Virus record (IMG/VR): IMGVR_UViG_3300029554_000001
DNA from: a virus
Length of the DNA: 64,000 bases
Reading direction: 5' to 3' (one strand)
Part shown: one piece after another, positions 2,628 through 55,818 of the stretch
Numbering within the stretch: position 1 is the first letter of the stretch
How the letters are laid out: the number at the start of each line of letters is the position of its first letter
The notes under the pieces: generated by a model
Told to the model about the DNA's origin: nothing
The model's input: the letters and a program-made list of their open reading frames with translations, nothing else
The model's database searches: none
Program-made: the position numbers and the translations under genes

Positions 2628-2947
2628 TCTTTCGTTAAATGTTTAAGAAAATCTTGTTTTATTATGTTAGAAATAAAATAAGCAATTGTTTTCCAAGCTG
2701 GTTGACTAAGACTATAAACGCAAGGAACAAATAATTCTTCATAAATAAATGATTCATCTAAATGTTCGTGAAAAATCAAATCATTAAGAGTAGGAATCTT
2801 AAAAACAAAAGTAAATCCATCTCCTCTTGTCCAATTACAGTCAATTAAATTGTTAAAACAAAAAAAGGAAGAATCAGAATAATCTTGACTAATATCCTGA
2901 GTTAATTTATCAAAAAGTTCTTCACAAAAATCTAAATAATTCATCAT
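2609..2947 (-). CDS. hypothetical protein
   Basis: 112-aa ORF that overlaps both neighbouring genes. Confidence 0.55.
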   Translation of the reverse strand: MMNYLDFCEELFDKLTQDISQDYSDSSFFCFNNLIDCNWTRGDGFTFVFKIPTLNDLIFHEHLDESFIYEELFVPCVYSLSQPAWKTIAYFISNIIKQDFLKHLTKDWVFPL

Positions 2948-3585: not shown

Positions 3586-3604
3586 AATTAATTTTTACCT
3601 CTAT

Positions 3605-4378: not shown

Positions 4379-4463
4379 AAATATACTCCTACTTTCTTAT
4401 TTTATTTCAAAAGAAGAATACCATAATTATTTTTCCTTGTCAAGTCTTTTGATAAGCTTTTCT

Positions 4464-4760
4464 TTAAATTTTCAAAAATCTTTTAAATATAGAAAAATAA
4501 AGACTAAAGTGCATTGAATGCCAAGCCTTGATAAAGGCGCAGGCATATTGTCTTTCTTTGTTATATATAGAGTCTATATTAGAGTACCCCATAAAGGACG
4601 ATAATTTTTCCCTTAAATTCTCTATATTCTGGAGCATTTTACAATCGTCAAGAAATGTATGAGTAGTTTTAACATTTCCGTAAGATGCGTAAAATTTTGT
4701 ATGAGTAAAATTGACATTTTTAATTTTGAATATTTCTTCTGATGAAAGTATAACATACAA
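4464..4760 (-). CDS. doubtful ORF overlapping the leftward promoter
   Basis: 98-aa track ORF whose start codon overlaps the predicted -10 element. It may be a leader or regulatory region instead. Confidence 0.2.
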   Translation of the reverse strand: MYVILSSEEIFKIKNVNFTHTKFYASYGNVKTTHTFLDDCKMLQNIENLREKLSSFMGYSNIDSIYNKERQYACAFIKAWHSMHFSLYFSIFKRFLKI

Positions 4761-8928: not shown

Positions 8929-9835
8929 AGATAAAACCAAGATTGGCGAAAATGTTAAAGCAGAAGCAACAATTTGGAAACAATATCAACATATAAATCC
9001 AGAAGATTCTCCAGAAGAAATTAAAAGGAAAGAATTTCTTAATTCTCTCTTAGCTGATAAAAAGCCTTATTTTTTCCGATACAAATATAACACTTTAAGT
9101 AAAGAATACAATGAATTTGTTAAGAAAAACGACCAAGATTGCCAGCTTAGATTTGCTTGCTCTTTAAAAGAGTTGTTAGCTAAAGATGAGAATTTATTAA
9201 ATGAAAGTCAAAAAGAATTTATTAGATATTATAAACATTTTCTTCCTGTGGTTGATTCTAATTGTGTGATGAATCAAATTTGTAAATATATTGAAAATGT
9301 TGATTTCCATATTAGAGAAAAAGTACGTTCTTCTCAAAACTTTGATTATCATACTTTAATGTCTGATGGTTTTGTAATTAATAAAAAGATATATGAACAA
9401 ATTAACGATTTAGTATCAAGTAGAATTAAGGAATGGGCAGCTAAAAGAACAGAAAAAGTTCTTGACGGAGCATTTGCAAGTAAGACAGTAAATCCAAGCA
9501 AGGTTCTTGATAGAGATTTAGAATATAATATTTTAAGACAAGATTTATTAACTAATATTTGTTCTAATGAAGAACAATTAGCAAACCATTTAATATATTT
9601 ATTTTATGTAGATAAACAGTCTTATAACAAGAATATTCTTTGGGCTTTAGTTGGAAGACAAATATACGAGAATATAAGAAAAAAGACCTCTGTTTATTAT
9701 TTTCCTCAAAAGAATCCTAATGGTTCTTTAGAGTTTTTATATGAGAAGTATTCTATTGAAAGAGTGCTTGTAAGTCATGAAGAGGAAATTGAAGAAGAGG
9801 AAAAAGGTATAAAGGAGGAATCTTTTTATGATTGA
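8929..9835 (+). CDS. RdRP/YonO-type RNA polymerase, exon 2
   Basis: Open upstream of track ORF 9173..9835 back to the proposed 3' splice site; TGA stop. Confidence 0.55.
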
Positions 9836-10862
9836 CATTTATGATGAAGAGGGTTATATTCAGGAAGTTCTTTAGAATGGTTTTTCTCAAAAATGGTAGA
9901 GAGATGCTGCTTTATTGGTAAAGTATTTTAAAACAGAATATGCACTTGGAAATTAGCCTTCTTGGAATAAAGAATGGGTTAAAGAAACGATTAAAGAAAA
10001 GTGTAAAAAGTATGTACCAACTTATGACCCTAATGTAACTTTTAATAGAGTTAATAAGTTGGTAGATACAACTTGGAAGAATTGGAAAGTTGACCCTGAT
10101 AACCTAAAAGAATCATCTTAGCTTAGGAAAATAAAAGAGATAAAAATTCCCGAAGCGGTATTGAACTGGTTTTTAAATCTTGATACATATTATATAACAG
10201 ACGAAGAAGTAAAAGATATTAAATCAAGGCGTAAGAATGTTAGTGTAAAGAATCACCCAATTACAATGGCACGAGCTAAATATTTATTTACTTTATATGT
10301 ATGGACAAAAATTTAGGAAAACTATTTAAGTAGACCTAATATACATTATCTTGAGAAATATAATAAGAAGTTAAGAAATGATGCTGATTTAAAGCCAAGT
10401 TTTTCTCTCACGAAAGAAAGAAACGTATTATTTGATTTAGGATTCATAGATATAAATCATGGACTTGGAGTAACTCCTATATTTATGGACAAAGAGGATT
10501 TCAAAGAAGCGGAGAAAGATGAAAAGGTAATTTTATTGGGTCGGAATGACCTCTATTTGTGCGGAAAATGGCTTGAAATGAGGAAATTCGGAACTTTTAA
10601 GTGTCAAAAATGTCGGAAATTATTGCCACGTTCGGCAAATAAAAGAGGTTAGCCAAGAAAATATTGTGAAGAATGTGCAAAATCTTTGAAAACACATACT
10701 AACGAAAAATATTATTGCATTAATTGTGGAAAAGAAATTGAACATAATAGTGTAACATAGAGAATTCATAAACGTTGCGCAACTTGTCAAGACCTTTATC
10801 GTAAAATGAAAGACAGGGAAAGAAAAAGAAATTTGGAAAATTCCACAAATAAGGCGATTTAA
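9828..10862 (+). CDS. hypothetical Cys-rich (zinc-ribbon) protein with 7 in-frame TAG codons
   Basis: Its ATG overlaps the polymerase stop (ATGATTGA). A 344-codon frame has no TAA or TGA. C-terminal CxxC pairs are present (CQKCRK, CEEC, CINCG, CATCQ). The gene is invisible in the standard-code track. Confidence 0.6.
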
Positions 10863-20455: not shown

Positions 20456-21895
20456 ATGGCTGATATTAATAAGCTGCAAACGCTCATCCAATTGCGTCGT
20501 GGTTTTCAGGCGCAGTGGGATACAGTAGCTAATACTTACATTCCTAAAGCTGGTGAACCTTGTGTAACTCTTGATGGTAAGAACAAGGGTTAGATTAAGA
20601 TTGGTGATGGCACTTCCACATGGGGAGAACTCAAGTATGTTGGTGTCAATGAAGGTGCTATGCATTTTATTGGTACTGTTGCTACGAAGGCTGAACTTCC
20701 TGAAAGTGCCGAAACTGGTGACATTTATCAAGTAACTGAAGATAGCAAACTGTATATTTGGGATGGCGATAGCTGGGAGATTTTTCATGCTGTTGACCTG
20801 AGTAATTATTACACCAAAGAAGAGACTACTAATCTTGTAACTGTTGAGATTGGTAAGGTTAATGAAAAAGTAACTGCTAATACCAATAAACTTAACGAAG
20901 TAGAAACTAAAGTTAACGAAACTAATTCCAAACTTGAAAGTCTTGGAACAGAGCTTGCCAAGGATTATGCTCTGAAAGCTGACCTTGATGTTATTAAGGT
21001 TTATGGCGATACTACATCTGATACTTCCATGGAAGTTAATGGACAAAAGTATAATACTGCCAGTGAAGCTATTGCGGCTGTAAGCGCTGGTGGCACGATT
21101 AAATTGAGTGGTGGTCTTGGTGCAGATGAAGTTATTAATGCTGACAAGCAGTTTACTCTTGATATGAACAATGCGGTTATTGTTGATAATGAGAAGACTC
21201 CTGTTAATGTTAGTGTTAATGGTGCTTTGACTCTCACTGGTAATGGCAGTGTTGAATGTAATAAGAATGGTAAACCCGCTATTAACAATAATGGTAACTT
21301 GATTATTGAGAATGGCAGTTATACTCGTAGCGTTGATGAGAAGGGTAATTCTTATTATACCATGGTCAACCATGGTAATATTGTGATTAATGATGGTATT
21401 TTCCAAGCTCCTCGGATTGTTTCGAGTATGATTTCCAATGGTTATTGGGATTACACACAGGATTACAAAGCTGGCGAAATGGCAGAATATCCTGAATTGA
21501 CTATCAATGGTGGCACATTTATTAACGCTTTCTATGTTATTAAGAATGATGACAATGGTAAGCTTTATATTAATGGTGGTAACTTCTACGGTACTATTTT
21601 CAACAATGGTTACGAAATGGTTGTTAAAGGTGGTAATTTCAAAGTTACTGATGGGACTTACAATATTGGTATGCGCAAGTTAAATGATGTAATGAACTCT
21701 GGTAAGTTACTCATTGAAGGCGGTACATTCTACAGCAATGGCGAAGTTAACTTTAAGCACAACGGTGGTGGCGAAGAGCCTGAAGTTGTTATTAAAGGTG
21801 GTAAGTTTAGTGCTGTTGTACCTGAGAAATATATTGCAGCAGGCTATGAATAGAAGTACATAGATGGTTACTATGTTGTAAGTGCAAAAGCTTAA
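20456..21895 (+). CDS. tail fibre/spike with an Mtd_N/HylP-like N-terminus and beta-helix-like repeats
   Basis: N-terminus LQTLIQLRRGFQAQW...GEPCV...IKIGDGTSTWGELKY; repeated NGG.F / GNGS segments. Two in-frame TAGs (one extends the C-terminus). Confidence 0.65.
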
Positions 21896-22902: not shown

Positions 22903-24582
22903 ATGGCTGATATTTCTAAAATTAAGCTTGCAAATGGCACTACTGTAACTATTAAGGATGCTCAGGGTCGTGCTGATATGACTACTATTCTTGGTGGTCA
23001 CGCTCTTGAAGCTCTTGGTGCTGCCGCATGGCAAGCTATGGCTGCTAGTATTTCTGATGCTGGTATTGCTGACGCTGCTACTGTTAAGGCTTATGTTGAT
23101 TCTCAGGTTGGTCAGATTCATAACTTTGATGTTGTAATTGACCCTACTGGTACTACCGCTGGTCCTTCTGTAGTTGCTTCTGCCGATACTATGTACAAAA
23201 TTTATCTTGTTCCTTCTGAGGATGCAGCAGCGGGTGGCTATATTGAATATATTACTATTCGTTCTGGCGCAGAGGGTGCTTATACTTACACTTGGGAAGC
23301 TATTGGTAATACAAAGGTAAGCCTTACTGGTTATGTTCCTACTACGACCACTATTGCTACCATTGCTCTCGACCACAATATTACTGTTGCTGAACTTCAG
23401 ACTGCTCTTAAGCTTGGTGCAATGGCCTATGCTGATAAGGCTTCTGGTTCTGGCACTCTTCAGACTATTGACAGTATCACCATGAAGGAAGTTACTGTTG
23501 CTGGTAACGCCGCTGTTACTTCTAAGGCTGCTGATGCTACTCTTACTAAGGCTAACTATACCCCTGCTGGTAAGGTTACTGGCTCGGCAATTTCTGATGG
23601 TTCTATTAATGTTACTTTGAAGGATTCTGCTACTAAGACCGAGGCAACTCTTAGCACCTCTGAGTTCACTCCTGCTGGTACTATCGCCGCTAAGGAGGGT
23701 GGTTCTTTCTCCGCCCTGAAGACTGCTGCTTTTGGTGCTGCTGAGGACGGTGTTCAGATTGAGGGTACTGTCAGTGCTCCTGCAATTTCTCTTACTGCTG
23801 CTGATAAGACTTTTGCTACTGGTTTGACTGGTGGTAAGGCTGCTTCCTTTACTGAGGGTGCTTTTACTCCTGCTGCAATTCAGGACGGTTTCTATACTGC
23901 TGGTAAGGCTGCTGCTTGGACTGGTGCTGATTATACTGCTCCTACCATGGGTGAGGCTTCTAAGGCAAAATTCGCTTCCGAGGGTATTGTTGTCGATGTT
24001 GGTTCTGGTGATGACGCTGAAACTTTGATTTTCTCTGCCGCTGGTACTGCTGATGCTGTTACCGCTCAGGGCGCCTTTAACGCTGGTAATGTCGATTTTG
24101 GTACTTTCAATGGCGGTTCTGCTACTGTTATTGATACTACTAAGTTCTCTGGTGGTTCTAAGGCTGCTGACACCTTCACTCCTAATGAACTTCAGTCCGT
24201 TACTACTGGCAAGGTAAGCGAAGTTTCTGCTGCTGAGCTTGCCAATGCTCCTGTATTCACTGGTAGCAAGTATGCTGTTGCTACTACGGCCGATACCGCT
24301 CTCAAGGATGTTGCCTTCACTGCTACTAATAGTGCTACTATTGTTGACAAGGTTGAGTATGTTAAGCCTGAGATTGATGCTGCTACCTTCACTGGTACTG
24401 CTGCTACTCTTGGCTTTGTTGGTACTGAGGTTGTTGATGCTCTTGTCACTGGTGTTAAGTACGATAAGGCTGATGCTACTGCTGCCTTTAGCGTTGCTGT
24501 CACTCCCGAGACTGACGTTATCACTAAGACTGCTAAGACTGTTGAGATTGAGGTCTCTCCTGTCGCTAAGGCTGGCGAGTAA
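22903..24582 (+). CDS. Ala/Thr/Gly-rich fibre protein with an N-terminal ISKIKL module
   Basis: 559 aa with no TAG. Repeated (F/Y)TPAG motifs and strongly biased composition, which creates spurious overlapping ORFs. Confidence 0.65.
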   Translation: MADISKIKLANGTTVTIKDAQGRADMTTILGGHALEALGAAAWQAMAASISDAGIADAATVKAYVDSQVGQIHNFDVVIDPTGTTAGPSVVASADTMYKIYLVPSEDAAAGGYIEYITIRSGAEGAYTYTWEAIGNTKVSLTGYVPTTTTIATIALDHNITVAELQTALKLGAMAYADKASGSGTLQTIDSITMKEVTVAGNAAVTSKAADATLTKANYTPAGKVTGSAISDGSINVTLKDSATKTEATLSTSEFTPAGTIAAKEGGSFSALKTAAFGAAEDGVQIEGTVSAPAISLTAADKTFATGLTGGKAASFTEGAFTPAAIQDGFYTAGKAAAWTGADYTAPTMGEASKAKFASEGIVVDVGSGDDAETLIFSAAGTADAVTAQGAFNAGNVDFGTFNGGSATVIDTTKFSGGSKAADTFTPNELQSVTTGKVSEVSAAELANAPVFTGSKYAVATTADTALKDVAFTATNSATIVDKVEYVKPEIDAATFTGTAATLGFVGTEVVDALVTGVKYDKADATAAFSVAVTPETDVITKTAKTVEIEVSPVAKAGE

Positions 24583-24621
24583 TTAGGAATTTCAATTACA
24601 AGTAGCTTAAGGAATTAAGCT

Positions 24622-24738
24622 ATGGACATTTCTAAGATAAAGCTTCCAGATGGTTCTACCTATGAGATAAAAGATGAGTATTTGCGTCATGCAATTATGG
24701 TGCTTTTAGGATTAGAAGAACCTAATTCTGAAAAATGA
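24622..24738 (+). CDS. 38-aa stub sharing the ISKIKL N-terminal module
   Basis: MDISKIKLPDGSTYEIKD... matches the N-termini of the 22903 and 25045 genes. Ends in TGA just before a terminator. Confidence 0.35.
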   Translation: MDISKIKLPDGSTYEIKDEYLRHAIMVLLGLEEPNSEK

Positions 24739-24742
24739 TACA

Positions 24743-24780
24743 ATACCGAGAGAGAGATGGAATGTCTTTCTCTCGGTATT
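24743..24780 (+). terminator. rho-independent terminator
   Basis: ATACCGAGAGAG...CTCTCTCGGTAT stem followed by an A/T-rich tract. Confidence 0.65.
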
Positions 24781-25044
24781 AAAACAATAAAAACAATTTT
24801 TTATTATTACAATTTAACAAAGAAACAAAAAGAGCTGTATTTATGAAATCTATCTTTTTAAATTTAGATTTTATAAATATGCTCTTTTTATGTTATATAC
24901 ATACATTTATAATATAAATTGATATACATGTAATATAAGAAGAACATAAAATTAACCTAACCAATTAGTAATACTGGTTAGATTTTTGATTTGTCTACGA
25001 TGTACAGGTGGATAAATTTGAAAAACATTAGAAAGGAGACAATA

Positions 25045-25428
25045 ATGGCTAATATTAGTAAAATCAAATTACCGAATGTGGGTACTCCATATAACATAGC
25101 TGATAGTACTGCTCGTAGTACTGCTGTTCAAGCAGCAACAGATGCTGAAACAGCTCTAACAACTGCTAATGAAGCTAAAACTGCGGCCTCTAATGCCCAA
25201 AGCACTGCTGATAGTAAAACAGCGAATTCTATTACTATGAATGGTAGTTCTAATGCTAATCCTACTTTCTATGCACCAACAACCGCTGGTACAAACGGTT
25301 ATTTTTTAAAAAGCAATGGCTCTGGAGCTCCAACGTGGGAGGCAATGAGTAGTGGTCCAGACATTGTAGTTAGTAGCTCTCAGCCCTCTGGTCAGAAGAA
25401 CGGAGATTTTTGGTATCAAATAGTTTGA
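25045..25428 (+). CDS. fibre-like protein (ISKIKL N-terminus, GDFWYQIV C-terminus)
   Basis: ATG after AAAGGAGA, internal to track ORF 24991..25428. Confidence 0.55.
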   Translation: MANISKIKLPNVGTPYNIADSTARSTAVQAATDAETALTTANEAKTAASNAQSTADSKTANSITMNGSSNANPTFYAPTTAGTNGYFLKSNGSGAPTWEAMSSGPDIVVSSSQPSGQKNGDFWYQIV

Positions 25429-26790: not shown

Positions 26791-26806
26791 TGCAAGAAAT
26801 CTTGCA
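26791..26806. repeat. left copy of the 16-bp site TGCAAGA-AA-TCTTGCA
   Basis: 7-bp perfect inverted arms around a central AA. It is the exact reverse complement of the site at 33061-33076. Confidence 0.6.
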
Positions 26807-26868
26807 GAAATAGGGCATGATTGGGGGTAAATAGATGCGTTTTCGTTGCAGGAAAACGCCGATTAAAC

Positions 26869-27354
26869 ATGAGTGTTCAAGTTGTTAACTCTGGAGGGTC
26901 TGACCCGAAATTGGGCGCATTCAGTGTAAAGTCAACGAAAATAATAGCAACATAGCTCGCTTCTTCATATAATCTTGAGGGTTTTAGTCAAGTAACCGTG
27001 AATCCAGTACAAATTTATAATGTAATTAGCACCGCAACTTATAGCACAGACGCATGGAATTCTTATAAAGCAACATGTACTCTTCCATATTAGGTGACTA
27101 AAAACTCAATTTGGCGGATTTTTTGGAGCTTTTGGGGAAAGGTAACTGTTTCTTCCTATGAAACAAACCAAGTTTGTGGTATTTTCATCCCTGACTCAAA
27201 TATTAATATATCTGTTATGAGTTGGGGCAGTATGGGGTTTAATTCCATTTATATGGCTAATGGATATACCAATAGTTTTACTATAAATGTAGTCAATAAC
27301 GGTACAATGTAGGTAGAAAGTGGCAATAACACCTTTGTTTATGTAATATATTAA
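26869..27354 (+). CDS. MSVQV-family cassette protein E (putative receptor-binding / fibre tip)
   Basis: MSVQVVNSGGSDPKL...; three in-frame TAGs; no SD sequence. Confidence 0.55.
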
Positions 27355-27375
27355 CGTTGCGTCCAATTGCCAATA

Positions 27376-27660
27376 TGCGTGTCAGTTCAGGTAGTCAATT
27401 TTAGTGGAGCTGGAGCGGATGAAATTTTAACTATTAATGATATTGAGCCAAGTGGTAGTATGCGTTCTTTTACTAGTAAAAACGGAGGGTACAGTAAAGT
27501 TATTATTCCAAAAAGTACACTTCCTCTTTTTTCTTTGGTTAATAGTTATTCTAATAACAATATTAATTATTCTAGTCTTTTATGCAATATAACAGAAAAT
27601 AATTATATTGTCATTCGGTCATACGGTGACTGTTATTGCTTTTTTAATAATAAATTATAG
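27376..27660 (+). CDS. MSVQV-family cassette protein F (short)
   Basis: GTG start giving (M)SVQVVNFSGAG...; no SD sequence. Confidence 0.45.
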   Translation, partial: CVSVQVVNFSGAGADEILTINDIEPSGSMRSFTSKNGGYSKVIIPKSTLPLFSLVNSYSNNNINYSSLLCNITENNYIVIRSYGDCYCFFNNKL

Positions 27661-27681
27661 CTTACAAAACTGTCTAATGAA

Positions 27682-28449
27682 ATGCCAGAAATAAAAGATA
27701 TTTCAGCATGGATTTATGGTCAAGCAGTAGCATTTGGAAATGGTAAAATTGTTATTACATTAAGGATGTCTCCTTTTAGTGGAGGAGATAGTGAATATCT
27801 CGGAATAGTTATTTTTAATTATAATTCTTCTACTGGTTTTTCTTTTTACAAAAGTTATAAACATACATCATTAGGTGGACAAGGAATACACCGCCTTTGT
27901 TATTTTAATAATAAATTTTATATGTCTGTTGATTCAACTTATAAATTATACTCTTCCAACAACGGGGAAAATTTTTCAGAAGTATCCGCAATTACTGAAA
28001 ATTGTTTAAATTTAGATTGCAATTCTTCTTATTTGTTTGTCAGAACACCATATGGGCTAAATTATTCTACTGATGGAACCTCGTTTTCTTTGTTAAGTAA
28101 TACTAATAATATGTATATTAATAATGTAATTTGTAGCGATATTGTTGCCGTAGAAGTGAGAGAAAACGACATGTCTGTGTGGAAACAATTTCAAAATGGA
28201 ACTTTAACTAATATTTTATATTCATACAATGGATATTACCATGAATTTAGATAGTATGGGAATTATTAGTTAATATTTATTACAAATCAATATTTTTTAA
28301 TAATTAAAAACAAAAATACTGGCGAATCAATACAAAAAAATTATATGTATGGCAATTTTGCTACAACTCCTGTAATAAATAATAAAATTTTTTTTGCTTA
28401 TGGTTCCAGAGGAATATCAGTGTTAGATTTAAGCTTTATGCAAATATAA
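27682..28449 (+). CDS. hypothetical protein, possibly a beta-propeller-like repeat protein
   Basis: Track ORF 27682..28254 extends through two TAGs to TAA at 28447-28449. Recurrent Y.S.(N/D)G..F segments. Confidence 0.5.
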
Positions 28450-28471
28450 TGTAGCAATAAAATGCCAGTAT

Positions 28472-29113
28472 GTGAGCGTACAGGTAAAATCATCAGGTTC
28501 ATCACCAACATTGCAATCTCGTACTGTTACTCCTTCAAGTTCTACTCAATATATTACACCTCAAAGTCGGTATGACGCTTTGAATTAGGTTACTGTATAG
28601 GGAGATAGTAATTTGGTTAGCTCTAATATTAAGAGTGGCGTTAGTATATTTGGAGTTAGTGGAAGTTTAACACAAGGGAAACAAGTTTTTGTAACAAATA
28701 ATTCTAATGCCTCTACTGCTATGTAGGAAAACATTACTTTTACATTTGATTATAATTTAGCACAATTTTCTAGCAGTATTCCTTATTATATAGGAGTAAA
28801 CCGTCAAGCGGCTGCATCGTTTGTTCGGTCAACAAGCCCAGATGATTTAACAGTTGAAAGTTTTTCTTACTTAGGATTTGAAGTTTCTCCTTATGTAACG
28901 GGGTGTTTATTAACAACAGTAGCTCAATATAATCCACAAACAACTTACATTGAAACTCATATTATAGGACGGACTCTAAACTCTTTAGAATGGACAATAA
29001 ATAATTACACTTTAACTTTAAAAATAGCAAATTACACTCCTTCTACAAAATTGTTATTTTTAGATAATAAACTTACTAAAAATTCTTCTTATATATGTAC
29101 ATTAATTTTTTAA
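28472..29113 (+). CDS. MSVQV-family cassette protein G
   Basis: GTG start; (M)SVQVKSSGSSPTLQSRTVTPSSSTQYITPQSRYDALN-TAG-VTV-TAG-GDSNLVSSNIKSGVSIFGVSG. Confidence 0.55.
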
Positions 29114-29137
29114 TTTGAAAGGAGGAATATACGACAT

Positions 29138-29461
29138 ATGGCAACAACTAAAAACATTCTCATGAAGCAAAAAAATTCTTCTGATTATGATACTATTTAT
29201 CCTATTACAGAAGAAACTTATACAAATGTTACCATGACTAGTGGCGGTTGGAGTAGCTCTTAGTATAGCTTTGAGGATACTTATCCTAATGCAAAGTATA
29301 ATATTTCTGTATCCGTGGCAAGTACGGCAAGTTCTGCTCAATTCGATGCTTTCGGTAAAGCTAAAATTGTTGGTAATGCAACTACTAATGTCGTTAAAGC
29401 TTTGGGAACAGTTCCTACTGTTGATATACCTGTAATGTTAAAGATTACTAGGAAGGGTTAA
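29138..29461 (+). CDS. small protein S1, paralogue of S2
   Basis: Strong RBS GAAAGGAGG. ...VASTASSAQFDAFGKAKI... aligns with S2. Confidence 0.6.
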
Positions 29462-29546
29462 GATTTTTTGGGTTTTTAATATTACTTTGCAAACTATAGT
29501 TTTAAAAATGATACTATAGTTTAATTAAAATTTTAATTAAATTATA

Positions 29547-29589
29547 AAGCCTAGGAGTTATTGTTCTTGCGATGGTAACTCTTAGGCTT
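29547..29589. terminator. bidirectional hairpin between the convergent cassette blocks
   Basis: AAGCCTAGGAGTTA ... TAACTCTTAGGCTT. A 20-nt perfect palindrome TTAATTAAAATTTTAATTAA lies at 29521-29540. Confidence 0.5.
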
Positions 29590-29623
29590 GAAAAATAAAT
29601 AATAAACAAGTAATTTAAAGATA

Positions 29624-30364
29624 TTAATTTGTTACTATGGCATATAAATAAGTCATTTCTCCTCCAAATGTATAATACCCAGAATAATTCACCGTAAGAA
29701 TACCATCTGATAATTGATAACTAAATTCTATTCCAAAGGATATTGCCTCATCCCGTTTTGCCATAAAAAATTTATTAGAACCTGAAACAACAGAAGAATA
29801 ACCAGCTACTATAAGTTCTCCATCATAAGGTTTTTCTTGCGCTAAAAGTACAACAAATAATATATTTTCATTAGAAGTAATGCCAGAAACGGGAATTGTC
29901 AAACTTGTTGAGCTATTACTATTAAAATAGGCTCCGTAATATCCTTTTTGTCCAGTTCCGCCACTAGATAGACTTCCATTCACGCCAAATATACTAATAC
30001 CAGATTTAATATTTTCTGAGATTAGATTGGAATCTCCATACACATACACCCCACTTAATCCACTATATCCAGAAGAAGGTGTAATGTTTTGCGGGTAAGA
30101 AGCGGGAGTTACATATTGGGTTGATTGATTATTTGTTCTGGCTGTAACAGAAGATAGTCCACTATACCCTGAATCTGGAGACACTGTGGCAGAACTTGAA
30201 GAAAGAGTTACAGATTTACTCTGTAAATTAGGTTTTACAGTTATAGAAGACATTCCATCATAACCAGATTGCGGTGAAAATGTAGTTGCTGAGGTAGATG
30301 TAAGACTAACGCTTCTTGATTGAAGATTAGCTCCTCCACCTTGAGTAAGGACTTCTACGCTCAT
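29624..30364 (-). CDS. MSVQV-family cassette protein D, with three tandem LQSK..GYDGLS repeats
   Basis: MSVEVLTQGGGANLQSRSV...SGYDGMSSITV / NLQSKSV...SGYSGLSSVT / ...SGYSGLSGVYVYGDSNLISENIKSGISIFGVNG. Its ATG overlaps the S2 stop (ATGA). Confidence 0.7.
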   Translation of the reverse strand: MSVEVLTQGGGANLQSRSVSLTSTSATTFSPQSGYDGMSSITVKPNLQSKSVTLSSSSATVSPDSGYSGLSSVTARTNNQSTQYVTPASYPQNITPSSGYSGLSGVYVYGDSNLISENIKSGISIFGVNGSLSSGGTGQKGYYGAYFNSNSSTSLTIPVSGITSNENILFVVLLAQEKPYDGELIVAGYSSVVSGSNKFFMAKRDEAISFGIEFSYQLSDGILTVNYSGYYTFGGEMTYLYAIVTN

Positions 30365-30690
30365 ACTTTATTCACCACCTTTAAAACAACGGGAATGTCT
30401 GTTGAGATTGGAACTGTGCCTAAAGCTTTAATTGTATTAGAAGTAGATGAACTTCCAATTTTAGCCTTTGTAAAAGCATCAAACTATGTAGATGTAGCTG
30501 TAGATGATACAGAGATGGATAAATTATATTTGGAATTCGGATAGTCGGATTCAAAACTATATGCTCCACTTGACCAAGATGCTCCATAGAGTGTGTAATT
30601 AACATATTGAACTGGTGGGCTGAATGGATATAATTTATCGTAAGACCGAGAATCATTCTTCTGTTGGATGAGAACATTCTTGTCAGCCAT
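30361..30690 (-). CDS. small protein S2, paralogue of S1
   Basis: RBS GAAAGGAG. Track ORF 30484..30690 continues through TAG (rc of 30484-30486) to TGA. Confidence 0.6.
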
Positions 30691-30856
30691 AATTGACTCC
30701 TTTCTATGTATATAAGTATAGAATTAAAAAGTATTATTAGTTTGATAGTTTTTAATTTTATAATATTAAATGCATATATTAAAATAAATGATATTAATGG
30801 GAAAACAGGTGCGTTTTGTGCTATATTTAATTGGGCAGTTTAAAGCAACTCATCTT

Positions 30857-31474
30857 TTAAATAAATAAAGTCATTTCAACCTAGCTCGCTGTTATTGTAT
30901 TGTAATACCAAGTATTATAAATTCCCCTACTTTCAAAACTAAGTATTATACCATTATCAGTAAGCTATCCCCGTTTGTATATGACAGACATAATAGCTTG
31001 TAAATTAGTATAACTATAATCATATAAGGGATAATTGGTATATATTCCCGATGGTGTTAAATTTCCAGTGCCAGAATCATTATACAACCCACAATTAATA
31101 CCAGAATACATTAATATTCCACTTTTTATTGGAGAGCTTGGAAAAGCCACAAATAGAGCAATCCCGCACAATTTCTTAATATATGATAAATAACTATTAT
31201 CCCAAGCATATTGATAGTTACTACCCGTTGATTGAGTTCCATTATTAAAGTTTAATGTTGGGGTTTTATAATAATTAGACCCATCATAAGTAAAAGTAAC
31301 GTTCTTAAAAGAGAAAAACGTATAGCCATAACTATTACTCTATAAACTAACACTAGATAAACCATCATAACCAGAATCAGGTTGTATAAATTGCGAATAT
31401 AAAAAACTAGAGTATGCTACTTTTGATTGTAATTTAGGTTCAGAACCACCAGAACTAGCAACCTAAACACTCAT
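30857..31474 (-). CDS. MSVQV-family cassette protein C
   Basis: ATG AGT GTT TAG GTT gives MSV-TAG-V. Includes ...QPDSGYDGLSSVSL... and four in-frame TAGs. Confidence 0.55.
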
Positions 31475-31502
31475 TTAGATTTAGGCATTAATAGACAACT
31501 AT

Positions 31503-32171
31503 TTATATATAAAAATAAGCAGTTCCTGTTCTTTGAAGAGAAGAAAAATTGGCAAATTGCTAATACATATCAGTAGACATACCCCAAGAAAATGACAAAG
31601 TAGAAGAGGGCAAAGAAGAAATGGATATGCCTGTATCAAGTCCGTAATAAACAGTCGTATTATTGTTAATAGTAGCATTAATACCACAATTTCCAGAATG
31701 GATTGCCGTGAGAATCGAACCTGACTCTATCCAAGCAACATCCCATTCACAAGCATAAAAACCAAATGCACTAAAGCTTGTACTATTACTTTGTTGCCAC
31801 AATGAAATTGTAGCAGCATAGACAAAAGGGAAATAAGAAGTTGTGAAAGAATAAGGAATAGGTATAGATATAGAAACCATATACATCTATCCAAACCGAT
31901 TTAAATTTTCTTGCTAAACTGTTTCTTGCGAAGAAGTCCAAGATAAATCTGTTTTCAGTTTTTCTACTCCTTTGTAATTACCTATCACACCAAAAATATT
32001 CACATCAGATTTAATATTACTACTAATCAAGTTACTACTTCCGTTTATAGTGACCTGACTTAATCCATCGTAACTTGAATCAGGCTTTATATATTGTGTA
32101 CTTGAGGATGGTGTAATAGTTTTAGACTATAACTGAGGACTTCCACCAATTGTTTTTACCTAAATAGACAC
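31503..32171 (-). CDS. MSVQV-family cassette protein B
   Basis: GTG TCT ATT TAG GTA start. ...SPQL-TAG-SKTITPSSSTQYIKPDSSYDGLSQVTINGSSNLISSNIKSDVNIFGV... Confidence 0.55.
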
Positions 32172-32208
32172 ATCTTGGGCGTTAAAATGCTTCTTTTATA
32201 TTTTAAAA

Positions 32209-32832
32209 TTAAATTATTTTAAATAAATAGCAATCTGTAAGAGTGTAAGTATTCCAAACGAAAGCTCTAAAATAAGAGCCAAGCGCCCACAATCTGTATT
32301 GAATTGTCATGCCAGTAGAAGAAATAGCGGTTATTTTATTTTCATCGTCATGAGCAAAACCCCAAATTGGGTCAACAATATTGAAATCGCCTGTGGAGGG
32401 AGTATATTCTCCTAAATAAAACCGATAATAATTTTGTGTATTTGGCATAGATAATTTAGTAGTATTATTAATATTATTATATTTAAAATAATATTGGTAA
32501 AAAATCTAAAATCTACTTGAGGTACTTTCAGAAGAATATCCCAATAAAAATTGGAGTAAATAATTTCTATTCTCCCAATTTTGGTTCTAATAAAAAGAAA
32601 CGGACAAAGTAGACAATGCGGTATTTCCAGATGCTTGTTCTACTTTTAAAGTGGTTGGAGATTTCACAAATAAATTTTCATATGTTATAGAATTTGTATA
32701 AGCAGAAACAATAACGTTACTTAATCCATCATATCCAGAATCAGCCGTAATGGTCTAGCTATATGTCTAAGGAGATACGGTTTTACTTTGTAATTTGGGA
32801 GAACTGCCTGTAGAAAGACATTGTATGCTCAA
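32209..32832 (-). CDS. MSVQV-family cassette protein A
   Basis: TTG start; (M)SIQCLSTGSSPKLQSKTVSP-TAG-TYS-TAG-TITADSGYDGLSNVIV... Confidence 0.5.
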
Positions 32833-32939
32833 TTATTTGGCATTTGGAAGCAACATGCTTTTTGAGAATTGTTTTGAGAACCTAAATTAAAAAAATTTAG
32901 ATTTTCAAAAGACCGCTCAAATACGCCCACTTTACTTAA

Positions 32940-33060
32940 GTAAAGCTGTTGCGTTAGCATCGAAAAATGCAACAAAAAAGATGCAAGTTGCGCGAAATTC
33001 TCAATTAAATGCAACTTTGAGAAAAATGTGATTTGTTGCACGAAACACCATCAAAAAATG
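32940..33060. promoter_or_regulatory. cluster of TGCAAC/GTTGCA and TTGAGAA half-sites
   Basis: GTTGC-16nt-GCAAC, TGCAAG-TTGCG, TGCAAC-22nt-GTTGCA, plus ATTCTCAA/TTGAGAA repeats, all next to the right 16-bp site. Confidence 0.4.
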
Positions 33061-33076
33061 TGCAAGATTTCTTGCA
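33061..33076. repeat. right copy of the 16-bp site TGCAAGA-TT-TCTTGCA
   Basis: Reverse complement of 26791-26806. Lies 72 nt upstream of the holin-like gene. Confidence 0.6.
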
Positions 33077-33511: not shown

Positions 33512-34555
33512 ATGAAATTATTAAAATGTCTTTTTACATAGAATAGATGTTATAAAAATGGGGTGAGAATTACTCCAAAAGGGATTATGGTTCATAGTAC
33601 TGGCTGTAACAATCCTAATTTGAAAAGATATGTGCAACCCTCTATTAATGATGCTAATTATAAAACACTGATTTCATAGCTTGGTAAGAATAATGGTGGT
33701 ACAGCTTGGAATAATTCTAATGCAAATGTATGTGTACATGCGTTTATTGGTAAACTTGCTAATGGCGAAATTGCTACTGTTCAAACTTTGCCTTGGAATT
33801 ATAAAGGATGGCATTGTGGTAAGGGAAATAAAGGCAGTCGGAATTCTTCTCATATAAGCTTTGAGATTTGCGAGGACGCGCTGACAGATGCTACTTATTT
33901 TAATAAAGTATATAAAGAGGCTGTTGAGTTCGCAGCTTATCTTTGCCAGCTTTACAATTTCGACCCATTAAAAGACGGAGTAATTATTGGACATTATGAA
34001 GGACACCAAAGAGGTATCGCTTCTAATCATGCCGACCCTCGTAATTGGTTTCCTCGTTTTGGCAAGAGTATGGACATTTTTAGACAAGATGTTGCTGCTA
34101 AGATGGGTAAAAAGGTAGCTCCTACTACCCACACTAATACTGAAACTACTGTGTCTTATTCTGGTATTGTTACCGCTTCTGTTTTGAGAATTCGTAAAGG
34201 TCCTTCTGTTTCTTCTTCTATTGCTGGAACTCTTAAAAAGGGAACGGGGGTCTCTATTATTCTTGAAGATAATGGTTGGGGTAAGTTGGCTGATGGTAGT
34301 GGTTGGGTAAGTTTAACTTATATTAAAAAGAATTCCATTCCAACTAGCACATTTAAAAGTTACCGAGGTAAAATTACAGCATCTTCTGGTGTTAATATAA
34401 GAACTGGTGCTGGTACTAACTACAGTAAAAATGGAGCTTTAACTTATAATTCTGTCGTAACTATTGTTAACGAGAAAAAAGTTTCTGGTATAACTTGGGG
34501 TAAGTTAGCCGATGGTAGAGGTTGGATTAGCCTTGCTTATTTAAAAAAGATTTAA
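33512..34555 (+). CDS. endolysin: N-acetylmuramoyl-L-alanine amidase (Amidase_2/PGRP type) with two SH3b repeats
   Basis: GIMVHSTG...HISFEIC...HADP motifs and a duplicated GWGKLADGSGWVSL / TWGKLADGRGWISL. Two in-frame TAGs in the N-terminal part. Confidence 0.8.
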
Positions 34556-34612: not shown

Positions 34613-35320
34613 TCAATCTTCTTCATCAAGCTTAAGAAGTCTATCTTTATATTCTTTTTCAATGCGTTCGCGTTCTAACTTCTCTGCTTTGCGCTGATTT
34701 TTCTCTACAATACTGGGTCTAAAATACCCTCTTTTATCACAAAAACGTTTCATTGTAGAACGATTAACATGAAAAAGTTTTGCTACATCTGCGTAACAGT
34801 TGTCTTGTTCAACAATCAATGCCTTAATGGTCTCTTCGTATTGAGTTAACTTTGTACTTTCTCCTAAAGAACCTTTCGGTCTACCAAGCTTTACTCCACT
34901 TGCTTTTCTCATCGCAAGTGCTTCCTTGGTTCTCTGACTAATAAGATTACGTTCAATTTCAGCAGAAAGTCCAAAAGCAAATGCTAAGACTTTGCTCTGA
35001 ATATCATCGCCTAATACAAATCCATCTTTGATTGTTCTTACTTGACAGCCTTTTTCCATACACAAAGAAAGAATGTCCATAATCATATAAAGACTTCTAC
35101 CAAGACGAGAAATCTCAGAGCAAATAATGATATCTCCACTTTGTACCTTTTTAAGAAGTTTTCCTAACTTACGCTTTTCGGGATTCTTTGTGCCAGAAAT
35201 CGTTTCTTCAATCCAGCCATCAATTTTCATGCCGTGCTTTTCACAATATTGGTTGATTTCAAAACGCTGGTTCTCAACAGTCTGCTGGTCAGTACTTACT
35301 CGAATGTAACCAAAAGTCAT
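34613..35320 (-). CDS. small serine recombinase (resolvase/invertase family)
   Basis: YIRVSTDQQ catalytic Ser motif, ...SRLGRS..., and a C-terminal HTH (HVNRSTMKRF). 235 aa, no TAG codons. Confidence 0.85.
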   Translation of the reverse strand: MTFGYIRVSTDQQTVENQRFEINQYCEKHGMKIDGWIEETISGTKNPEKRKLGKLLKKVQSGDIIICSEISRLGRSLYMIMDILSLCMEKGCQVRTIKDGFVLGDDIQSKVLAFAFGLSAEIERNLISQRTKEALAMRKASGVKLGRPKGSLGESTKLTQYEETIKALIVEQDNCYADVAKLFHVNRSTMKRFCDKRGYFRPSIVEKNQRKAEKLERERIEKEYKDRLLKLDEED

Positions 35321-35996: not shown

Positions 35997-37146
35997 ATCG
36001 CCTAAAGCTGTTGTAAATGAAGAAGCTAAAATGATTACTATGACTTAGGATAAACCTGAAGAAGATGTTTCATTGAAGGCTATTCAGCAAAGATGGGCTA
36101 CTATTTTTGGTAAATACGCTTCTACTGGTTTTGACAACTTGGCTGGCGCTTGGGCTATGTCTTGGAGTCAATTAAATAATCCGTTTTTGCAGAATCAACG
36201 TATTAAACAAGTTAACGCTAAGGCTCAAAAAGTTCAATCAGAAGACCTTCAAAATGCTTTAAACAATCCAGAAAACTCTGAAATGACTTTTTAGAGAATC
36301 AGTATGTGGCTGTATTATACTAATTATGTTTACAATATTTTAGTAAAACTTAATAGAGATACTCCCTTATTTAATTATTATTATATCCCAGAGTATGTTG
36401 ACTCGAAAGATATGTCTACCGAAGCTTTTAAAAAAGAAAGTCAAAAAGTCGATAAGATTTTAAAAGCTTTTAAACCAAATTTAACTTTAAAAACTATTAC
36501 TACTCAGGTGAGTTTGGAAGGTAAATCTTCTTATTTACCTCGTACAAGCTATGATAAGAATGATGTTAATTTTTTTGTCATGCAGAAACTTAATACTGAT
36601 ATGGTTAAATTGATTGGTTTTGGTAGTAAACAGTAGTTTACTATTGCTTTTAATATGGCAATTTTCCTTCAACCAGCTTATGATGTTAGTCAGTATCCTC
36701 AATTTATTCAGGATGTCTGGAATCAAATGCTGGAAACAGGAATTGTTGTTATAGATTAGAAAACTAAGAAAAAGAGAATTTCTCCTAAAGCGAAACTTCC
36801 CGATGGTCACATCTTGGAAAGCAATGGAGAAAATTATATGTATTGGGTAAGATTGCCTCAAGATTTGTGTTATACATTCTATTTTGATGGCTCTCATCCT
36901 AATGCATTCCCTGATACAATTGGCTTGTTTGATGATTTGACAGACTTGGATGACTATAAATGGTTGCAAGCAAATTTATTAAGTAAAGGTGTTAATAGTG
37001 TTTTAACTGCTGAGGTTCCTATTACGAAGGATGCCAAGGCCCGGTCCGACTCTACTGTTATTACTCCTGATACAATTCTTGGTTATCAGGATTTCTTTGC
37101 GGAGAATATTTCAGGTAATATATTGCCTTTCTTCGCACCATTTAGT
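35956..37146 (+). CDS. portal protein, exon 1
   Basis: TTG start after GGGAGG. Track ORFs 36073, 36304 and 36814 share one frame, joined by four TAGs. Portal assignment rests on size and position. Confidence 0.6.
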
Positions 37147-38465
37147 TAAGAATTTATATGAATTATAAACGAATAGCTAACGTTCACAGTAATGTGTTCG
37201 AAAAAGCGACAAATTGAATTGCTGGGAAATCCTAAAGTTGATTCAACTACAACGTAATTATGAAATATGAATAAGCGTGAATGTTGCGAAAGCAGAAAAA
37301 ATGAATCAAATATTTACATGGTTAAATCCTAAATAAATATAAATGGGTAATCAGCCGCTAAGTTCTGAAAAAGAAAAAGTTCAACGACTATCTCTGTTAA
37401 AGAGAGTAGAACCAAGTGGTTCGAAGTGGTTTGCCCCTTTTAATTAAGGGTGAAGATATAGTCTGTGCTTTATAGAAATATAAAGAAGTTCATAAGAGAA
37501 CTGCTTAAGTGTAACGAACTTAAGTGACCAATGTTTATTAATAAATTATATTATCAAAAGACATAAAATTTTTTAAAGAAAGGAGGGATAGAATGATTCT
37601 TCACGAAGAAGTGGATATTAATATAAATAACAGAAATATTACTTATTATAAGAATAAAGGATATGATTGTAAATCTGGAGATACATTGAAAGTAAAAGAA
37701 AAAGATATCCTTCCAACAAGCCCTTTAAAAGAAGAAAGAAAATGCGATGTTTGTGGACAAAACTTCATAAGAAGAAGAGATAATAATATTGAATCTTTTA
37801 ATAGATTTGGGAAAGATGTTTGTCCTCATTGTTTTAAAACTAATAAAAATATTAAAGATATAGTTCAACAAAAGAGAGAAAAAACTTTTATAAACAACTA
37901 TGGAGTAAATAATCCTATGTTTGTTCCAGAGTTTGTTGATAAAATTGGAGATACCTTAGAAGAAAAATATGGGGCAAGGAATCCATCTCAAATAGAAGAG
38001 TTTAAAATTAAACAAGAAGAATCTATGTTGGAAAAATATGGTGCTCGTAAAGCTTTGCAAGTAAAGCAGTTTCAAGAAAAATTTATAAAAACCATAAGTG
38101 AGAATTATTCTGTGAAGACCTCTTCTCAATAGGTTGCTTGTTTTAATATGTTAAAAGAGCGTGGATATAATGTTGAATTAAATTATCCTTATTCTACTTG
38201 TTCTTTAGATATTTTAATTATTATGCCAGATGGGACAAAAATTGACTTTGAATATGATGGAAGTCATTGGCATGATGATGAATAGAAAAAAAGAGATAGA
38301 AAACGTGACGAGTTTTTAAAAGGACAGGGTTTTAAAATAATTAGAATGGAATCTAAAAGAAGTATTCCCTCTTGGGAACAAATTGAAGATGAGATAAATT
38401 ATTTAATGGAAAAACCAGAAAGAAAATTTGCTCATTTATGTATTGATAATATAAACAATTGATAG
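37147..38465 (+). mobile_element. group I intron C with a Vsr/EDxHD-like endonuclease ORF
   Basis: P1: exon TTAGT pairs with GCTAA (37176-37180) with a U-G pair. P2 has a GUAA tetraloop and the core matches introns A, B, D and E. Splicing after G38465 gives ...FAPFS-TQEFELHTLENQ... Confidence 0.8.
37593..38462 (+). CDS. intron-encoded homing endonuclease, Vsr-like/EDxHD (I-Bth0305I-like) family
   Basis: RBS AAAGGAGGG. Repeated (E)KYGxxNP modules, then LDILII...IDFEYDGSHWHDDE-TAG-KKRDRKRDEFLKGQGFKIIRME. Two in-frame TAGs. Confidence 0.6.
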
Positions 38466-39176
38466 ACACAGGAATTCGAATTACACACCTTAGAAAATCA
38501 GCCCGAAGCAATGGATATCATTTATGATAGAACTAGAGATTTAATCGCTACTTCTGGTAATTCTGCTCTTATGAGTATTACTGATAAACCTTCTATCGCT
38601 TCTGTTAAGGCTGCTCAATATATTTAGGCTGCTAGAATTGATTACCTTACCAGACAGTACGAAAGTTTCTTAAATGAAATGATTAATAAGAATTTTGATT
38701 TGAAATTCCAATGGAAAATTTCTCTTTGGGGTGATATCTTTAATATTCGCGAGGATATCAAAATTCTTAGAGAATAGGTTGTGTCTGGTTTAGAAGGTTT
38801 TATTCCTAAACTTCTGTCGGCTAATGGTATGACTGTTGATGATTATCAACAAGCTAAAGCTTACCTTAAAGCTTTAGATATTAAAGTTGAAAAAGTCTTA
38901 GACCAAGAAAATTTAATCGCTAACCCTGTTGGTAGACCAAAGTTGAACGATGATGAGATTACCAACGATAACACTGGTAACTCTTCCAATGCTGGAACTA
39001 ATGTTTCAGACATTAAGGAGTTTTCATATAATATCAAAAAGTGCCAAATTTGCGGAAAAGAACTGAATGAAGATGAAGATGTAATTTGTAACGAATGCTT
39101 GGAAGAAATGTATGAGTCTCGTATTAATGATATGAGTACTTTTACTCACATGATTCCAAAGAAAGTAAAGGATTGA
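38466..39176 (+). CDS. portal protein, exon 2
   Basis: Open frame upstream of track ORF 38781..39176, joined by two TAGs. A C-terminal CxxC...CxxC is present. Confidence 0.55.
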
Positions 39177-51522: not shown

Positions 51523-51910
51523 CGGATGCCGAGTCCGCATTTGCTTGGCTAAAGAGTAACCGTATACAGTGATGTGTATGTAAAAATAGTCTTTGAATTG
51601 CTGGAATTCCCTAAAGCTGTTTATGCTACAACAAAAGGATGAAATATGCCTAATTGTGAATGCTACGAAAGTAAAAAGAAATAAACAGATGATATATGGT
51701 TAAATCCTAAGTGTTGAATAATGGGTAATCAGCCGCTAAGTCTTGAATAAAGAAAAGTTCAACGACCATTTCGAAAGGAAGTATACCACAAGTGATTGGT
51801 GGTAGAAGTGGAGACTGCCTTTTAATAAAAGGTAATGATATGGTCTAATCTTATATGAAAATATAAGGCGAAAGCAAAATAAGAGTAGCGTCTTATTTTA
51901 AATTAAAATG
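51523..51910 (+). mobile_element. group I intron E, without an ORF
   Basis: Same core as introns A-D (TTGCTGGAATT...GCTACGAAAGT...ATGGTTAAATCCTAA...AATCAGCCGCTAAG...GTTCAACGACCATT...GATATGGTCT). P10: TTGGCTAAAG pairs with the exon 2 start TTTTAGCTGG. The omega G is at 51910. Confidence 0.75.
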
Positions 51911-55319: not shown

Positions 55320-55818
55320 AATAAACCTATTGACACAAGAGGTCAGGGTTGCCAGAGAAGTTGTATATTGGGCTACCATCCAGTGATGCAATGGAGGCTT
55401 ATTAGGGTTGTCAGGTTTCCACAGGGTAGCAATTAAAACTGTCCGACCAACATACTTTCATGCGTGGTTTCAAACGGAAGAGAAAGGCGTTTTAAGGTGT
55501 CGGCATAAACCTTATCATCTTATATACCATGTTGTATATTTAGACCAGCTACGAGGCATAGTCTTGCAGCTTTTTAATGTGGTGTCCATGAGCACAGGAT
55601 AAGGACTTAAAGAAGACCAAATTTACGGGTTCGTAAAACGGGTCTGAGCCATATATCTCATGTACCATGTGTACAAGGAGTTCCTTAAGACGTTAGAGTT
55701 TAGCTTTAGCGTTTTATGCAATGAAAAAGGTGAGACAGGGAGTAGCTACCTTTTGTTTTGCCCCAACAAAACAATTATCATCTTTTTCATTTTTAATTAA
55801 GACTTGGGGGTTTTAGTT
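55320..55818 (+). ncRNA. candidate large structured noncoding RNA, family not recognised
   Basis: About 500 nt with no credible ORF and visibly more G+C than the surroundings. Nested hairpins include AGACC-AAAT-TTACG-GGTT-CGTAA-AACG-GGTCT, GTCCGACC...GGTGTCGG, GCTACC...GGTAGC, AAAAGGT...ACCTTTT and GTTTTG-CCCCAA-CAAAAC. Confidence 0.4.

Follow-up and report, generated by a model that had tools for sequence, protein, structure and literature searches.

What a phage does with a crowd of related tail-tip-like genes, and how it changes them, is the question raised by positions 26869-32832 of the virus record IMGVR_UViG_3300029554_000001, an array of about 6 kilobases (kb) within the 64-kb stretch analysed here as a whole (hereafter the window). 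When TAG is read as a sense codon the array encodes seven paralogous, intact open reading frames (ORFs), of which E, F and G lie on the plus strand and D, C, B and A on the minus strand, together with two small paralogues, S1 and S2. These form two convergent blocks meeting at a palindrome and a hairpin, as a preliminary description of the locus had stated; the stem of the hairpin measures 19 base pairs (bp). That description had further regarded the array as a variable library of alternative receptor-binding modules and not as an invariant set; the relatives compared below differ greatly in cassette content and order and support a library, the receptor-binding part being suggested by synteny and by domains of homologues. 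The recombination sites and the DNA invertase, which that description did not contain, were found in the present analysis. We propose that the array is a shufflon-type multiple-inversion system that permutes whole tail-tip genes, with an Mpi-family serine invertase as the likely catalyst, and we put the probability of this reading at about three in four. The genome that carries it is that of a TAG-recoded gut phage of about 215 kb, a jumbo phage.

Relatives were retrieved from public collections with the flank 16-mer, S2 and D as queries and comprised many contigs of 150-220 kb from human-gut metagenomes, with flanks and units 97-100% identical to those of the window. In the notation used here M is the central module G-S1/D-S2, LF and RF are the left and right flanks and u denotes other cassettes, so that the window reads LF/E F (M) C B A/RF. 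Locus L128 reads LF/E (M) u2 C B A u1/RF and L130 reads LF/(M inverted) E u2 C B A u1/RF, while L127 and L133 are both LF/C u2 E (M) u1/RF, L129 and L134 are both LF/C u2 E (M) u5 u9 u7 A u1/RF, and L123 is LF/u6 u3 u10 u11 u13 (M-like) C E/RF; the more distant relative L126 has 7 + 5 further cassette types. In all loci compared the plus-oriented sites described below occurred only in the left block and the minus-oriented ones only in the right block, content and order being different. The cassettes E, C, u2, u7 and u8 were found in either block, always on the strand that matches the block: E lies in the right block on the opposite strand in L123 and L130, and a 100% identical copy of C adjoins the left flank on the plus strand in L127 and L133.

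The boundaries of these rearrangements coincide with a short element. Alignment of 38 cassette 5' regions from the window and its relatives gave the oriented motif aaGTTGY-N8-GCC, which ends 5-10 nucleotides (nt) ahead of the start codon; as the distance to the start codon varies, the motif represents a DNA element rather than a constraint on coding. Strict matches numbered five in the 6-kb segment as against two in the other 58 kb, and the shuffled mean was 0.99 per window. A weight matrix derived from this alignment located seven sites in the window, each pointing to its downstream gene, three on the plus strand in the left block and four on the minus strand in the right block (Table 1); up to 15 were counted per locus in relatives. 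The mobile units that they bound are E, F, G+S1, S2+D, C, B and A, seven here and up to 14 in relatives, and cassette D, whose start overlaps the stop of S2, has no site of its own. The GTTGY arm remains with its upstream neighbour (a constant flank or the preceding cassette's 3' end), and what comes after GCC moves with the cassette. The core triplet was GCC in 103 sites and ACC in six over the 14 loci scanned. The S2 unit (GCC/CATTTA or GCC/CAATTA) was found behind at least eight different arms, among them those of the left flank (L013, L130) and of the right flank (L119), and the right-flank site is joined to the S2 unit in L119 and to E in L123. We also considered a fusion model with a constant ORF running across the left-flank site and rejected it, only E being in frame with the 16-codon ORF upstream. 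No ORF was found that enters the cassettes from one of the flanks in a conserved frame, and each cassette has its own start codon at the site-to-start distance given above.

The exchange itself can be read from two genomes obtained from different samples. An in silico inversion of L128, with the left-flank and S2 sites as its ends, gave a sequence that aligns collinearly and without gaps to L130 over 10,500 nt, the identity being 99.73%. The left-flank junction is ..aaaacgCC/GATTGAAC (E) in L128 and ..aaaacgCC/CAATTAAA (S2) in L130, and the junction at the 3' end of u2 is ..caattaCC/CAATTAAA (S2) in L128 and ..caattaCC/GATTGAAC (E) in L130. The two genomes are thus one reciprocal inversion apart, with partner sites that have only CC in common, and since CC is not palindromic the sites have a polarity. 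A 2-bp crossover is a signature of serine recombinases, whereas tyrosine recombinases require an identical overlap of 6-8 bp.

Variation of the same kind was present within single assemblies. The contig IMGVR_UViG_3300045988_154761 (L120/L121; 212,924 bp) has a perfect inverted terminal repeat of 2379 nt, which covers the central module and 55 nt more and stops precisely at a site. It contains the junctions LF/G, P/S2 and P/G, where P is the neighbouring cassette of 167 residues, and as one isomer is unable to supply all three junctions, two isomers are needed. The repeat is an assembly artefact of the invertible module and not a genuine genome end. The exact left-flank arm occurred in 24 metagenome contigs with at least 15 different cassettes after GCC; two of these contigs stop exactly at GCC and two others about 52 nt beyond it, as an assembly graph with a branch at this point would behave. 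Hence the sites are oriented, inversions at CC are reciprocal and isomers are many, and with more than two oriented sites per cluster and isomers that differ by inversion between opposite sites, the array has the properties by which shufflons are defined.

The same sites could mainly serve another use, in which co-infecting phages gain, lose and exchange cassettes in the manner of integrons and inversion is a side effect, an account which is compatible with multiple inversion. At least 30 types of peripheral cassette were counted among the 14 loci, the variety that follows one and the same left flank points in this direction too, and near-identical genomes carry from two to seven peripheral units, with 12 in L126. 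Such differences in number among near-identical genomes suggest that cassettes are deleted or inserted at directly oriented sites, or that co-infecting phages exchange them. However, the strict separation of plus sites on the left and minus sites on the right in every locus is what inversion predicts and random insertion does not, and the pair of genomes related by a single inversion, together with the contig with inverted terminal repeats, demonstrates inversion. We therefore consider it unlikely that cassette turnover is the main role of the sites.

Table 1. Features of the array, its recombination sites, flanks and recombinase genes (positions in the window)
Feature	Position	Strand	Details
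Left palindrome	26791-26806		16 bp, TGCAAGA-AA-TCTTGCA; constant left flank
Left-flank site, ahead of E	26845-26860	plus	GTTGCAGGAAAACGCC; constant left arm; within hairpin 26837-26859
Cassette E	26869-27354	plus	ATG start; 161 residues; 3 in-frame TAG
Site ahead of F	27356-27371	plus	GTTGCGTCCAATTGCC
Cassette F	27379-28449	plus	GTG start; 356 residues
Site ahead of G	28451-28466	plus	GTAGCAATAAAATGCC, variant; left boundary of central module
Cassette G	28472-29113	plus	GTG start; 213 residues
S1	29138-29461	plus	Small conserved protein; 107 residues; strong Shine-Dalgarno sequence
AT palindrome between blocks	29521-29540
Hairpin between convergent blocks	29547-29589		19-bp stem; z = -5.3
Cassette D	29624-30364	minus	ATG start; 246 residues; three N-terminal repeat units; Shine-Dalgarno sequence
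S2	30361-30690	minus	Small conserved protein; 109 residues; 56% identical to S1
Site of S2-D unit	30834-30849	minus	GTTGCTTTAAACTGCC; 144 nt upstream of S2; right boundary of central module
Cassette C	30857-31474	minus	ATG start; 205 residues
Site ahead of C	31484-31499	minus	GTTGTCTATTAATGCC
Cassette B	31503-32171	minus	GTG start; 222 residues
Site ahead of B	32178-32193	minus	GAAGCATTTTAACGCC, variant
Cassette A	32209-32832	minus	TTG start; 207 residues
Right-flank site, ahead of A	32839-32854	minus	GTTGCTTCCAAATGCC; constant left arm
Cluster of five extra GTTGC/GCAAC motifs	32948-33039		Within 92 nt of right flank; includes AAGTTGC-N19-GCAACTT
Right palindrome	33061-33076		16 bp; inverted relative to left copy; T-run follows on minus strand
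Serine DNA invertase, Mpi family	34613-35320	minus	235 residues; no in-frame TAG; 1.8 kb right of right-flank site
XerC/D-like tyrosine recombinase	59966-60946		Pfam Phage_integrase, 1.2e-8; three in-frame TAGs; 27 kb from array

The enzyme which most probably catalyses the exchange at these sites is the Mpi-family invertase encoded next to the array, as indicated by its adjacency, its co-occurrence with the sites and the 2-bp core. The protein matches the resolvase domain PF00239 at 3e-35 and the PHROG 'DNA invertase' at 1e-46, and against NCBIfam NF009949 (master DNA invertase Mpi family) it scores 299.1 bits with a cut-off of 272 (E-value 1.4e-89, profile positions 1-197 of 203). Its best relative of solved structure is Gin of phage Mu, with a full-length alignment that includes the helix-turn-helix domain, and the catalytic serine lies in YIRVST. 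The gene is found at the same place in all relatives.

Another possible catalyst is the XerC/D-like tyrosine recombinase of the window, a Phage_integrase-family protein, which would make the array a tyrosine shufflon like that of R64 (Rci) or the Rin system of Bifidobacterium. Sites with one conserved and one variable arm would suit such an enzyme, as they resemble the asymmetric 11-bp rix repeat (PMC6109161). On the other hand, partner sites here share only CC in place of the overlap that tyrosine recombinases require, the gene lies far from the array, and its product scores 72 bits, far under the XerC/XerD cut-off of 335, whereas the Mpi-family invertase adjoins the array and is syntenic in all relatives. 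This makes catalysis by the tyrosine recombinase quite unlikely. The sfx sites of R64 likewise have one conserved arm.

We also compared the cassettes with one another. An N-terminal region of 45-70 residues is common to A, B, C, D and G (BLASTP E-values 2e-7 to 3e-31), the match of E is weaker (5e-7 to C and 4e-6 to D), and F resembles the other cassettes in its first 11 residues only. All seven begin with M-S-(V/I)-(Q/E)-(V/C), and D has three tandem LQSK..GYDGLS..V copies, both as described before. Among relatives G has a conserved N-terminus and a variable C-terminus. The identity of S1 and S2, formerly put at about 50% by eye, was computed as 56% (E-value 1e-39). By reading of the sequence, F contains Asp-box-like SxDGxxF motifs. 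What had been taken as a separate repeat protein in the plus-strand block proved to be part of F: the two lie in one frame, neither a site nor a Shine-Dalgarno sequence precedes 27682, and with TAG read as glutamine they make up one ORF. All-against-all alignment and structure prediction, which the preliminary description had proposed, gave N-terminal homology in the first case and a model of D of low confidence without a structural match in the second.

These comparisons bear on the view that the array is a fixed set of tail-tip proteins made together, in which the differences between relatives would come from homologous recombination or old rearrangements and not from programmed inversion. 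The ORFs are intact and point inward in every arrangement, terminators are missing between cassettes, and the N-terminal coding similarity permits some homologous exchange, of which the E of L124 with its C-like 5' end is an example. Against this, the reciprocal breakpoints are limited to 2 bp in a conserved 16-nt motif outside the coding region, inversions separate genomes that are 99.7-100% identical, and the sites are exactly where assemblies break off or acquire inverted terminal repeats, and we judge a fixed set to be very improbable. Still less credible is a simple switch like the G segment of Mu, in which the whole 6.25-kb segment would flip between the 16-bp palindromes at 26791 and 33061, since these, though they flank the array near an invertase gene as a perfect inverted pair of 16 nt whose AA centre is asymmetric, are the site of no junction or rearrangement breakpoint in any relative compared, the 38 nt (left) and 206 nt (right) that separate palindrome and first site belong to the flank in every locus, viral contigs did not yield the recombinant junction that such a switch predicts, and every flank breakpoint lies at a GTTGY-N8-GCC site, so that whole-segment inversion was rejected.

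The flanks contain other conserved elements. The two palindromes are the only perfect copies in the window, and relatives keep them with 1-nt variants. The cluster of extra motifs in the right flank is the densest GTTGC/GCAAC spot of the 64 kb and is kept in relatives; its AAGTTGC-N19-GCAACTT has the 8+3+8 geometry of the recombination sites, and we speculate that the cluster may be an accessory binding region for the recombinase.

Under the multiple-inversion reading, the recombinase would pair one plus site of the left block with one minus site of the right block, exchange strands at the CC dinucleotide and invert all DNA between them. Each inversion would then transfer cassettes from one block to the other in reversed order and leave both blocks pointing inward; as a matter of geometry an inversion between a plus and a minus site always preserves inward blocks, which explains the convergent two-block layout of every locus. 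In this way any unit, the central G-S1/D-S2 module included, could come next to the constant left or right flank, and cassettes could be gained or lost through recombination at directly oriented sites or between co-infecting genomes. The shared N-terminal region would serve for attachment and the divergent C-terminal domains for binding, so that shuffling, by altering which cassettes are proximal to flanking expression signals, would vary the adsorption specificity of the progeny.

The gene starts are of interest in this respect. The start codon is GTG or TTG in four of the seven cassettes, all four being site-linked, and a Shine-Dalgarno sequence is missing from all six site-linked cassettes, whereas nearly all other phage genes, S1, S2 and D included, have an AAGGAGG-like Shine-Dalgarno sequence and ATG. 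Because the site-linked cassettes differ from nearly all other genes in this way, the position of a cassette may tune its expression instead of switching it on and off. The hairpin between the blocks is probably a bidirectional terminator. In a scan for sigma-70 promoters the matches were no commoner than in shuffled sequence, and no promoter could be assigned to either flank. A bolder reading would make the locus a new host-range device, namely a whole-gene cassette platform with two inward expression positions, in which an Mpi-family invertase acts at half-symmetric sites, cassettes are efficiently expressed only when adjacent to a flank, and exchange is integron-like across TAG-recoded jumbo phages of gut Firmicutes. 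In it, the restriction of efficient expression to flank-adjacent cassettes would follow from the missing Shine-Dalgarno sequences and the mostly TTG or GTG starts. We offer this as a tentative possibility, with more doubt than confidence.

The tail function of the cassettes was approached through their position and their homologues. The array is placed after tail-fibre-like genes (20456-21895 with Mtd_N) and before a holin-like gene and the endolysin. Pfam and PHROGs searches with the nine array proteins gave nothing informative. Among the matches found, homologues of the cassettes occurred only in metagenomic phages and one Oscillospiraceae assembly. The homologue P0052 ends in Pfam Phage_tail_C, a phage tail tip domain, P0092 has BspA-type leucine-rich repeats (LRR_5), and P0085, which comes from an Oscillospiraceae prophage, is present there as a single-copy gene of the tail module, directly before a Phage_fiber_2/Gp10_C protein and a lysin. 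Given this synteny and the tail-tip and leucine-rich repeat domains of the homologues, it is reasonable to regard the cassettes as putative tail-tip, receptor-binding proteins. The AlphaFold2 model of an S2 homologue had a predicted local distance difference test (pLDDT) score of 57. The lysin, the strong Shine-Dalgarno usage and the prophage homologue suggest a Gram-positive host, possibly of the Oscillospiraceae. In the same tail module, the stretch 24600-25250, between the tail-fibre-like genes 22903-24582 and 25045-25428, has 77-80% identity to relatives or no alignment in surroundings of about 94%, and represents a second variable spot.

Several points weigh against a shufflon of tail-tip genes driven by the Mpi-family enzyme. 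The sites have one conserved arm (GTTGY) and the sequence past GCC differs among cassettes, whereas the sites of Hin, Gin and Cin have dyad symmetry; a search for a conserved right half-site (GCAAC, 8 nt past GCC) found none. The link between the invertase and the sites is one that we infer, and the window encodes one other recombinase. Different samples supplied most of the contigs compared. As for function, the cassettes have no match in Pfam, and the AlphaFold2 model of D is all-beta with a pLDDT of 64, which is low confidence; its Foldseek comparison with the PDB gave nothing below an E-value of 5e-3, the matches being generic jelly rolls and tailspikes with a template-modelling score of about 0.2. 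Lastly, no terminators were found between cassettes, and with all cassettes pointing inward inversion may not switch genes on or off and all of them may be co-expressed.

The recoding of TAG underlies the reading of all these genes. The G+C content of the window is about 32%, and the endolysin (Amidase_2 + SH3_3; 33512-34555) needs two in-frame TAGs to be read through. These codons, together with the fusion of the array ORFs into full-length genes, make the late genes of the window coherent only with TAG as sense. By analogy with published recoded gut phages (10.1101/2021.08.26.457843; PMC9523058) the residue is presumed to be glutamine (code 15). Sense TAG was observed in many late genes, such as 33512-34555, 9828-10862 and 55804-57069, with up to seven per gene, and there was none in the invertase, in cassette D and in the minus-strand genes at 1176-4760. 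ARAGORN gave no tRNA, and hence no suppressor tRNA, in the 64-kb window. A megablast search of 15 kb against GenBank phages returned no match.

Elsewhere in the window, a group I catalytic intron lies at 51556-51867 (Rfam RF00028, 58.4 bits, above the gathering score), and a match to the 'drum' small RNA family at 55350-55446 (RF02958, 43.6 bits with a gathering score of 43). An insertion of 1.3 kb at 37145-38471, missing from several relatives, interrupts a gene that is one ORF of 606 residues in L128, L131 and others; it contains a group I intron match below threshold (37250-37485, 44.9 bits, E-value 8e-10) and an ORF of 289 residues (37593-38462).

Shuffling of this kind may let a phage vary the host surfaces available for attachment, and it is found here in abundant, uncultured gut phages. 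Because the 16-nt site and the 2-bp crossover are defined and a candidate enzyme is named, its biochemistry is directly testable, and the sites are usable to track phage subpopulations in metagenomes. Two cautions follow for those who handle such genomes: assemblies break or turn chimeric at the array locus, and annotation with the standard code fragments every cassette.

Programmed inversion of tail fibres is a classic means of hedging phage host range. To our knowledge the known tail-fibre cases swap two to few C-terminal segments of one fibre gene, and the literature searched gave no account of the present shuffling system. Tail fibres are also enriched among the targets of programmed inversion in bacteria (PMC9881135). 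Among the serine-type systems are Gin/G of Mu, Cin/C of P1, Pin of e14 and the multiple inversion of Min in p15B (PMC6109161). As in these, a small phage serine invertase lies beside invertible DNA with several inverted crossover sites, a putative tail-fibre target and convergent sets of alternative genes (PMC6109161), and crossover occurs at a 2-bp core common to partner sites. In those systems alternative C-terminal segments are joined to a constant N-terminal part of the fibre; here complete genes move, each with a start of its own, and crossover takes place in the 5' untranslated region, 5-10 nt ahead of this start. Their sites are 26-bp dyads, whereas here there are one conserved arm, up to 15 sites, two flank positions and a recombinase of the Mpi family. 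A Fis-dependent recombinational enhancer works in cis in those systems, and we speculate that the GTTGC cluster of the right flank could be an accessory element here.

The namesake of that family, Mpi of Bacteroides fragilis, inverts seven capsule promoters (PMC10403206). The enzyme described here passes the cut-off of the family and, if it does act at these sites, would likewise act on many of them; in contrast to the short promoter segments scattered over the chromosome of B. fragilis, the inverted DNA carries genes and not promoters, and forms one clustered array in a phage of a probable Gram-positive host. The site is probably unrelated in sequence to that of Mpi.

Among the shufflons, that of R64 (Rci/sfx) shares with the present array clustered multiple inversion and sites in which one arm is conserved. 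It employs a tyrosine recombinase with a conserved core of 7 bp and acts on the C-terminus of PilV, the adhesin of the pilus tip, whereas the targets here are whole phage genes. In comparison with the tyrosine shufflons, R64 Rci and Rin, the array has no tyrosine recombinase beside it and a shared core of 2-3 bp. The Rin shufflon of Bifidobacterium prophages uses a tyrosine recombinase, 11-bp sites and five variable C-terminal segments with a constant N-terminal gene (PMC6109161), and the BV01-like phages of Phocaeicola carry a three-cassette tail-fibre shufflon whose cassettes overlap the distal end of one fibre gene (PMC13596623). The present system agrees with these two in that it belongs to gut phages, that a short asymmetric repeat precedes each of its variable, putatively receptor-binding cassettes, that a recombinase is encoded beside the locus, and that rearrangement was seen by comparison of genomes or reads (PMC6109161, PMC13596623); it is unlike both in its whole genes, 2-bp crossover, candidate serine invertase and number of sites. 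What sets the array apart from the known systems is the movement of whole genes, the crossover in the 5' untranslated region, the half-symmetric sites, the Mpi-family enzyme, the two flank positions and a far larger repertoire, in a TAG-recoded jumbo phage.

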